Shown in pieces: positions 706 to 886 of a stretch of DNA of 24,785 nucleotides. Source of the stretch: an uncultured bacterium (GTDB lineage: Bacteria > Hinthialibacterota > Hinthialibacteria > Hinthialibacterales > Hinthialibacteraceae); assembly GCA_964516245.1 (NCBI GenBank), contig CAZEZQ010000002.1, positions 1,678-26,462 on the forward strand. Direction: 5' to 3'. Below the pieces are notes generated by a model. That model was not told the DNA's origin. It ran no database searches and saw only the letters and a program-made list of their open reading frames with translations. A program made the translations under genes and the position numbers. The number at the start of each line of letters is the position of its first letter. Position 1 is the first letter of the stretch.

Positions 706-886
706 CTTAATAAGCTGATCTTTACCCACAATTAATGGTGGGAGCAGTATTCCCTCCCCAAGTTTGGGGAGGGTTAGGGCGGGGTTGAGAATGTTTGATA
801 TGAGTAAAATCATAGCCCGCAACCCTCTCCCAACCTCCCCCAAACTTGGGGGAGGAGTACTTGTGGGTAAAGATCAGCTTAATAAG
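706..886. mobile_element. MITE-like element: 17-bp perfect terminal inverted repeats (CTGATCTTTACCCACAA at 715-731 / TTGTGGGTAAAGATCAG at 861-877) flanked by a 9-bp direct repeat CTTAATAAG (706-714 and 878-886) consistent with a target-site duplication
   Basis: Seen directly. Perfect 17-bp TIRs with identical 9-bp flanking direct repeats. The 129-bp interior has no ORF and carries two G/C-arm palindromes (752-773 CCCTCCCCAAGTTTGGGGAGGG; 834-855 CCTCCCCCAAACTTGGGGGAGG). It lies immediately next to the element at 561-690, suggesting an insertion hotspot. Confidence 0.55.

Follow-up and report, generated by a model that had tools for sequence, protein, structure and literature searches.

The DNA between a secretin gene and its neighbor in an uncultured bacterium of the Hinthialibacterota raises a simple question: is the short inverted-repeat sequence found there a mobile element and, if so, which family of transposases would move it? 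The sequence lies near one end of what we call the window, the whole stretch of 24,785 nucleotides that was analyzed (contig CAZEZQ010000002.1 of assembly GCA_964516245.1, positions 1,678 to 26,462). The original prediction, made from the letters of the window, had described an intact-looking MITE with perfect 17-bp terminal inverted repeats (TIRs) and a 9-bp target-site duplication (TSD), inserted beside another MITE, and had proposed that the TSD would point to a particular transposase superfamily. The sequence is intergenic, lying between the 3′ end of the secretin gene (position 490) and an AIG2/GGCT-type gene on the same strand (1000-1503), which is followed by a pseudopilin gene.

Structure and setting of the element

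Direct reading confirmed the coordinates of the perfect TIRs (17 of 17 positions) and of the 9-bp flanking repeat (Table 1), and it gave an element of 163 bp (window 715-877), or 172 bp with the duplication. When the comparison is extended to the 19-bp functional end, 18 of 19 positions agree, the left and right ends differing at position 18 (AATT versus AAGT). Each strand of the window contains a single copy of the 17-mer; shuffled sequence gave 0.08 17-mer matches with three mismatches allowed, and none of 100 shuffles reached two. For a direct repeat that matches at nine of nine positions and abuts both ends, simple arithmetic (4^-9) puts the chance at about 4e-6. The 9-mer alone is nonetheless ambiguous, since CTTAATAAG is nearly self-complementary (it differs by one base from its own reverse complement, CTTATTAAG) and the flank can therefore also be read as a longer inverted repeat (705-734 against 858-887, 30 nt, 93%). 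At an element-free allele, the predicted junction would read ...ATCTCAC-CTTAATAAG-GGGGGGAAT.

Table 1. Features of the element and its immediate flanks, in window coordinates.
Feature	Position	Strand	Sequence or remark
Left target arm	700-705		TCTCAC; degenerate counterpart of the right G-run
Left TSD copy	706-714		CTTAATAAG; same as 878-886; abuts the left end
Left 17-mer	715-731		CTGATCTTTACCCACAA; direct reading
Left 19-bp transposon end	715-733	+	CTGATCTTTACCCACAATT; bases 1-17 form a perfect inverted repeat with the right end
Subterminal spacer	734-751		About 15 nt without right-arm counterpart; unpaired in the RNA fold, gap in the half-versus-half alignment
Cargo hairpin 1	752-773		Palindrome CCCTCCCCAAGTTTGGGGAGGG; CCCTCCCCAA-GT-TTGGGGAGGG, 10-bp perfect arms
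G-rich module	767-787	+	GGGAGGGTTAGGGCGGGGTTG; pairs with 820-834 in the fold-back
Central A+T-rich fold-back loop	788-819		32 nt between the repeat arms
Cargo hairpin 2	834-855		Palindrome CCTCCCCCAAACTTGGGGGAGG; CCTCCCCCAA-AC-TTGGGGGAGG, 10-bp perfect arms
Right 19-bp transposon end	859-877	-	Minus-strand reading CTGATCTTTACCCACAAGT
Right 17-mer	861-877		TTGTGGGTAAAGATCAG; direct reading
Right TSD copy	878-886		CTTAATAAG; direct reading
G-run	887-893		GGGGGGG; adjoins the right TSD on its outer side; G arm of the C-run/N9-13/G-run target that the family prefers

Between the ends lies a 125-bp cargo (734-858) in which host-type G/C hairpins make up a fold-back. The two G/C-arm palindromes, which had been placed about 60 bp apart, are separated by 60 bp. 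The arms of the fold-back (746-787 and 820-861) are 79% complementary, alignment of the two halves of the element gave 57 identities over 81 positions (the score was 24, and no shuffle exceeded 4), and the folding z-score is -10.3 as DNA and -10.7 as RNA. At 163 bp and without a transposase gene, the element falls within the size range of MITEs (roughly <600 bp). Its longest open reading frames, of 51 and 53 amino acids, had no Pfam match, and tblastn with Tn5 transposase or with the five Tn5-like transposases described below found no transposase in the window, in agreement with the earlier reading that the MITE encodes none.

We compared the spacer between the secretin and GGCT genes with those of the closest relatives of the GGCT protein, which are about 50% identical and come from MAGs labelled Candidatus Hinthialibacter or "Omnitrophica." The two genes are adjacent in two of these relatives, L151 (GCA_016934335.1) and L153, with spacers of 33 bp and 171 bp, respectively, against 509 bp in the window. 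The excess is roughly the length of the element and its duplication plus that of a neighboring repeat at about 550-690. Given the distance of these relatives, the short spacers are weak supporting evidence and represent no true empty site.

The neighboring repeat recurs at 12733-12898, which bears out the claim that the element sits beside another MITE. This second MITE-like family has TIRs of the form (C/T)AATGTCATTAACTTAAG and an internal palindrome, GGGAGGGCGAGGCTCC...GGAGACTC, and its copy at 12733-12898 has perfect 18-bp ends. Between this copy and an open reading frame that ends at 12685 is a hairpin, CCCCCCATTGAAATGGGGGAGG (12712-12735), which directly adjoins both and has the C-run/G-run form of the Tn5-like family's preferred targets (see below). 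A third dispersed intergenic repeat of about 68 nt occurs at 2212-2279, 2300-2367, and 16749-16816 (65 to 72% alike), with an inverted match at 16868-16885; it contains the palindrome GCAGGCGTCC(C)GCCTGC, and two of its copies stand in tandem after the pseudopilin gene.

A 19-bp end shared across genomes and metagenomes

The core pair TTTACCCACAA...TTGTGGGTAAA was searched for in one genome per species and was found at 21 loci, about 14 of them from Candidatus Parabeggiatoa. In the latter, the complete end is CT[A/T]A[C/T]CTTTACCCACAAGT; both ends are abutted by direct repeats, and the cargo between them shows no relation to that of the window. Metagenomes scanned with CTDAYCTTTACCCACAAGT yielded at least 120 further stretches. 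Dozens of short elements, in metagenomes and in Candidatus Parabeggiatoa, have the 19-bp end (consensus, CTaAtCTTTACCCACAAGT) on both sides of unrelated cargo, so that the view of the window sequence as an intact-looking MITE is backed by many short noncoding elements elsewhere that are bounded by the same end. The hosts of this end extend from Candidatus Parabeggiatoa to a relative of Hinthialibacterota. Among the viral contigs scanned, eight single matches were found, about the number estimated by chance and none with an inverted partner end nearby, and a literature search for the core sequence returned unrelated primers only.

Among the matches listed, ends could be joined into 76 inverted pairs, of which 64 were kept (ends starting with CT and a flank of at least 20 nt). 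Across 206 distinct ends, again among the matches listed and partly selected by the scan pattern itself, conservation is near total through position 19 and drops to background at position 20. In 38 partner ends that do not match the scan pattern, conservation likewise ends at position 19. Because conservation stops there, the functional end is 19 bp long, as in Tn5, and not 17 bp.

Two further groups of sequences came to light in these scans. Five loci (L007, L009, L011, L016, and L020), from MAGs of Sedimenticola, Methanococcoides, and Zetaproteobacteria, with one contig binned as archaeal, hold short elements in which the core TTTACCCACAA is followed outwards by other bases (…CTGCCC or CTGCCT); the inverted repeat of the L007 element reaches further outwards. 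These ends may form a related but distinct family. In a single locus, L121, at least four MITE-family copies or fragments are crowded together (5365-10356).

Autonomous elements of the Tn5 type carry the same ends

Among the matches listed, five elements with the same inverted ends (L042, L072, L078, L082, and L100) are autonomous. All come from other organisms than that of the window, measure 1384 to 1784 bp, and contain a single long open reading frame whose product matches the Pfam families Tnp_DNA_bind, DDE_Tnp_1, and Dimer_Tnp_Tn5 in five of five cases. The NCBIfam model transpos_IS4_3 was matched by both of the proteins tested with it (L078, E = 1e-116; L100, E = 1e-142), and the best PDB match of the L100 protein was Tn5 transposase (E = 4e-45, residues 7-448). 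Alignment with Tn5 transposase placed D97, D188, and E326, together with Y319, R322, and K333, at conserved positions in all five. These transposases are 29 to 50% identical to one another and 26 to 31% identical to that of Tn5; the ends of their elements are nearly identical, and both ends of L078 are exact copies of the 19-mer at the right end of the window element.

The association of this end with Tn5-like genes extends to degraded copies. A fragment of a Tn5-like reading frame adjoins the end in 13 of the 13 loci that have one. In L056, a 660-bp element with the same ends (8214-8873) retains such a fragment and is an apparent internally deleted intermediate between IS and MITE, and partial derivatives are found in L039, L068, and L077. 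A tblastn search with Tn5 transposase itself had no match in the first 29 loci. The L078 transposase has more than 5000 homologues in public data, mostly on contigs of 1.5 to 2.5 kb. Many Tn5-like homologues (P0043, P0046, P0054, P0057, and others) are about 700 to 825 amino acids long and have an additional DUF4338 domain (PF14236). An end pair in L121 that spans 1444 bp (8422-9865) looked like a sixth autonomous copy but was discarded, for it encloses an IS1595-type transposase (DDE_Tnp_IS1595 plus zinc ribbon), the result of either nesting or capture.

We then compared the window ends with those of IS50 as found on plasmid pO86A1 (outside end, CTGACTCTTATACACAAGT; inside end, CTGTCTCTTGATCAGATCT). 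Of the 19 positions of the IS50 outside end, 14 agree with the right end of the window element and 13 with its left end. The IS50 subgroup has been defined by ends of the form CW------Y---CA-A--W-, direct repeats of 8 to 9 bp, and a size of 1350 to 1550 bp (PMC2266710, Table 1), and CTGATCTTTACCCACAAGT agrees with all seven defined positions of this consensus (1, 2, 9, 13, 14, 16, and 19). The transposase family can be named, an IS4-family, Tn5-like group, on the strength of the end sequence and the autonomous copies; TSD length alone would not have identified it.

Target duplications and target sites of the family

Exact direct repeats of 7 to 13 bp abut both ends in 31 of the 64 pairs (among the matches listed), most often with a length of 9 bp (14 pairs) or 10 bp (9 pairs) and less often of 11 bp (4 pairs), 7 to 8 bp (3 pairs), or 13 bp (1 pair). 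Most of these repeats are nonpalindromic, as in AACCCCGTA, TACCATTCC, and CATAAATGC. Given that the duplications of the family are mostly nonpalindromic direct repeats, the ambiguity of the 9-mer in the window is settled in favor of a target duplication, as the original prediction had it.

Unexpectedly, the TSD usually lies between an upstream C-run and a downstream G-run. At least four contiguous complementary base pairs flank the TSD in 61% of the 31 sites with an exact TSD of at least 7 bp, against 2% of random positions in the same loci, and positions 11 and 12 outside the end are C in about 70% of all ends. The autonomous element L078, for example, lies in GCCGGC-CTCACTGAG-GCCGGC. We considered whether the flanking runs are part of the element and rejected this, as the 9 to 13 nt between run and end are repeated in direct and not in inverted orientation and vary from copy to copy. 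In the window, the right arm is an uninterrupted G-run and the left arm is degenerate, so the site fits half of the preference.

Cargo of the element and a putative sibling copy

By blastn against all fetched loci, the cargo gave one 23-nt match only, to the generic G-rich module. Because no fetched locus shares the cargo, we turned to proteins and queried a protein database with the two spurious reading frames of the element. The sole match, P0144, is a predicted peptide of 77 amino acids on an NCBI contig of 10,227 bp that is identical to the translated window (782-883) at 31 of 34 residues. The identity spans the central loop, hairpin 2, and the right end, and it stops one codon past the end, where the flanks are unrelated (SGRGLGEG... 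against NKGGNN...). The peptide thus points to a sibling copy in a different context, whose flank plausibly back-translates to a G-rich arm of the GGGAGAGGGCTAGGG type. As P0144 would share cargo and end within a different flank, the short form appears to exist at no fewer than two loci. The original prediction had been made to depend on the existence of other copies of the TIR, and such copies turned up widely as ends and, in the putative sibling, in a different context together with the cargo.

Where might the cargo have come from? The module CCCTCCCC..GGGGAGGG TTAGGGCGGGG resembles CCCTCTCCCTCCGGGAGAGGGCTAGGGTGAGGG in the orthologous spacer of L153 and similar sequences in several metagenome loci, a likeness that makes the cargo look like captured or duplicated host hairpin sequence. 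G-rich modules of the form GGGAG(A)GGG[CT]TAGGGNG[AG]GG, attached to C/G hairpins, are present in the window (767-784), in L153 (9881-9900), and on metagenome contigs that are otherwise unrelated (L110, L112, L115, L128, L137, L140, L141, and L146). The G-rich module appears to be a widespread type of host hairpin that is often the insertion site of the IS/MITE family. Nothing indicates a role for the element beyond mobility: the window as a whole had no Rfam match at gathering thresholds, and a consensus scan of the element found no terminator-like site and one weak promoter-like site, within shuffle expectation. The hairpin, which is predicted to be strong, might influence how far transcription of the secretin gene continues into the GGCT gene.

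Discussion

We conclude that the sequence at 715-877 is very probably a non-autonomous MITE derived from Tn5-like ISs of the IS4 family, IS50 subgroup, and that both the observation made originally and its interpretation as a MITE are supported. The element retains only the two 19-bp ends, of the kind bound by Tn5-like transposases, and by homology it would be mobilized in trans. If the chemistry follows that of Tn5, a transposase from a full-length copy elsewhere in the genome would bind both ends, pair them in a dimeric complex, excise the element by cut and paste through DNA hairpin intermediates, and join it to target strands cut 9 bp apart, where gap repair would produce the CTTAATAAG duplication. 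Such a pathway would call for an active partner in the genome from which the window comes. That the element transposed recently, as proposed originally, is plausible.

The reading that comes nearest to this one is that the site was first entered by a full-length Tn5-like IS, whose interior was later deleted in place, so that the short form never moved and the TSD dates from the insertion of the IS. Neither the ends nor the TSD would look any different after such a deletion, and deletion derivatives are known within the family (the L056 element, with its transposase remnants, and the partial copies in L039, L068, and L077). The cargo of the window element, however, has no transposase remnant and consists of a fold-back of host-type hairpins, and P0144 appears to have the same cargo and end beside another flank. 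The putative sibling copy argues that the short element, and not a decayed IS, was the unit that moved, and we regard in-place deletion as improbable. Coincidence of the inverted and direct repeats, which has the near-palindromy of the 9-mer in its favor and nothing else, is already refuted by the shuffled sequences and by more than 140 related loci elsewhere, and we give it practically no weight.

The remaining alternatives start from the hairpins. A locally evolved structured RNA, or a regulatory or terminator hairpin, would explain the very stable fold (z of about -10) and the position between two genes on the same strand, but its stem would then end exactly at what are the ends of Tn5-like ISs, with a direct-repeat TSD outside them, and the flank of the putative sibling diverges where the repeat ends. 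The Rfam search at gathering thresholds and the scan for terminators and promoters also speak against an RNA or a regulatory hairpin, which we consider very unlikely. REPs are not known to have inverted repeats at their ends or to duplicate their targets, and the window element shows both features. A REP/BIME-like palindromic unit spread by a RAYT (an IS200/IS605-type tyrosine transposase) would account for cargo palindromes with G/C arms that resemble dispersed host hairpins, one of them in the orthologous spacer of a relative; yet the part that recurs as mobile DNA is the 19-bp end common to elements with DDE transposases and not the hairpins, and this explanation seems to us just as hard to believe as a structured RNA.

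The derivation from Tn5-like ISs invites comparison with known systems. Like IS50 and Tn5, the family has a 19-bp functional end starting with CT, the window copy has a 9-bp TSD, and the autonomous relatives share the three-domain architecture and the DDE and YREK residues; unlike them, the window copy is without a transposase, and the related transposases are only distantly similar to that of Tn5 (26 to 31%, as above). Tn5 has a weak target consensus only, whereas this family strongly prefers C-run/G-run target arms. In this respect, parallels exist elsewhere: IS231A also favors a symmetric G/C target, GGG(N)5CCC, and IS1397 and ISKpn1 are ISs whose insertion sites are palindromic repeats, such as REPs. 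Insertion into or beside short dispersed palindromes or conserved target arms is a likeness that the family shares with IS1397/ISKpn1, ISRm22, and some members of the IS4 subgroup, although these are members of other families or subgroups. For the IS4 and IS4Sa subgroups, a "spectacular" specificity for target arms has been noted, and the same survey reports no comparable preference for the IS50 subgroup (PMC2266710). The TSDs of the family, at 9 to 11 bp and occasionally 13 bp, also differ from the 8 to 9 bp of that subgroup (PMC2266710).

As short cassettes with IS4-family ends that are moved in trans, MIC231 and other non-autonomous derivatives of IS231 resemble the window element, but they belong to another subgroup, with CAT ends and repeats of 10 to 12 bp (PMC2266710), and MIC231 often carries genes, whereas the window element has hairpins only. 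A MITE in hupL of Thiomargarita nelsonii, for which no parent IS was identified, combines an inverted repeat of 19 bp with a direct repeat of 10 bp (PMC4853749). It resembles the present family as a MITE of large sulfur bacteria with an inverted repeat of this length; we rejected it as a member, since its sequence is without the ACCCACAA core.

We speculate that the CTNAYCTTTACCCACAAGT end may mark an undescribed and deeply diverged clade of Tn5-like ISs and MITEs that crosses phyla and that chooses its targets by structure or by symmetric sequence, inserting into the loops of C-run/G-run hairpins. TSD length (9 to 13 bp) would then be set by the spacing of the runs and not fixed as in Tn5, and the hairpin cargo of the MITEs could seed new landing sites. 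This is a tentative proposal, and we think it somewhat doubtful as a whole.

For the window itself, the element is of little consequence. It accounts for a secretin-GGCT spacer that is about 340 to 480 bp longer than in the relatives, and it marks the genome as rich in small mobile repeats. Beyond the window, the 19-bp end is a simple marker of a widespread environmental family of Tn5-like ISs and MITEs, and the preference for C-run/G-run hairpins, if confirmed, might serve targeted insertion of the Tn5 type.
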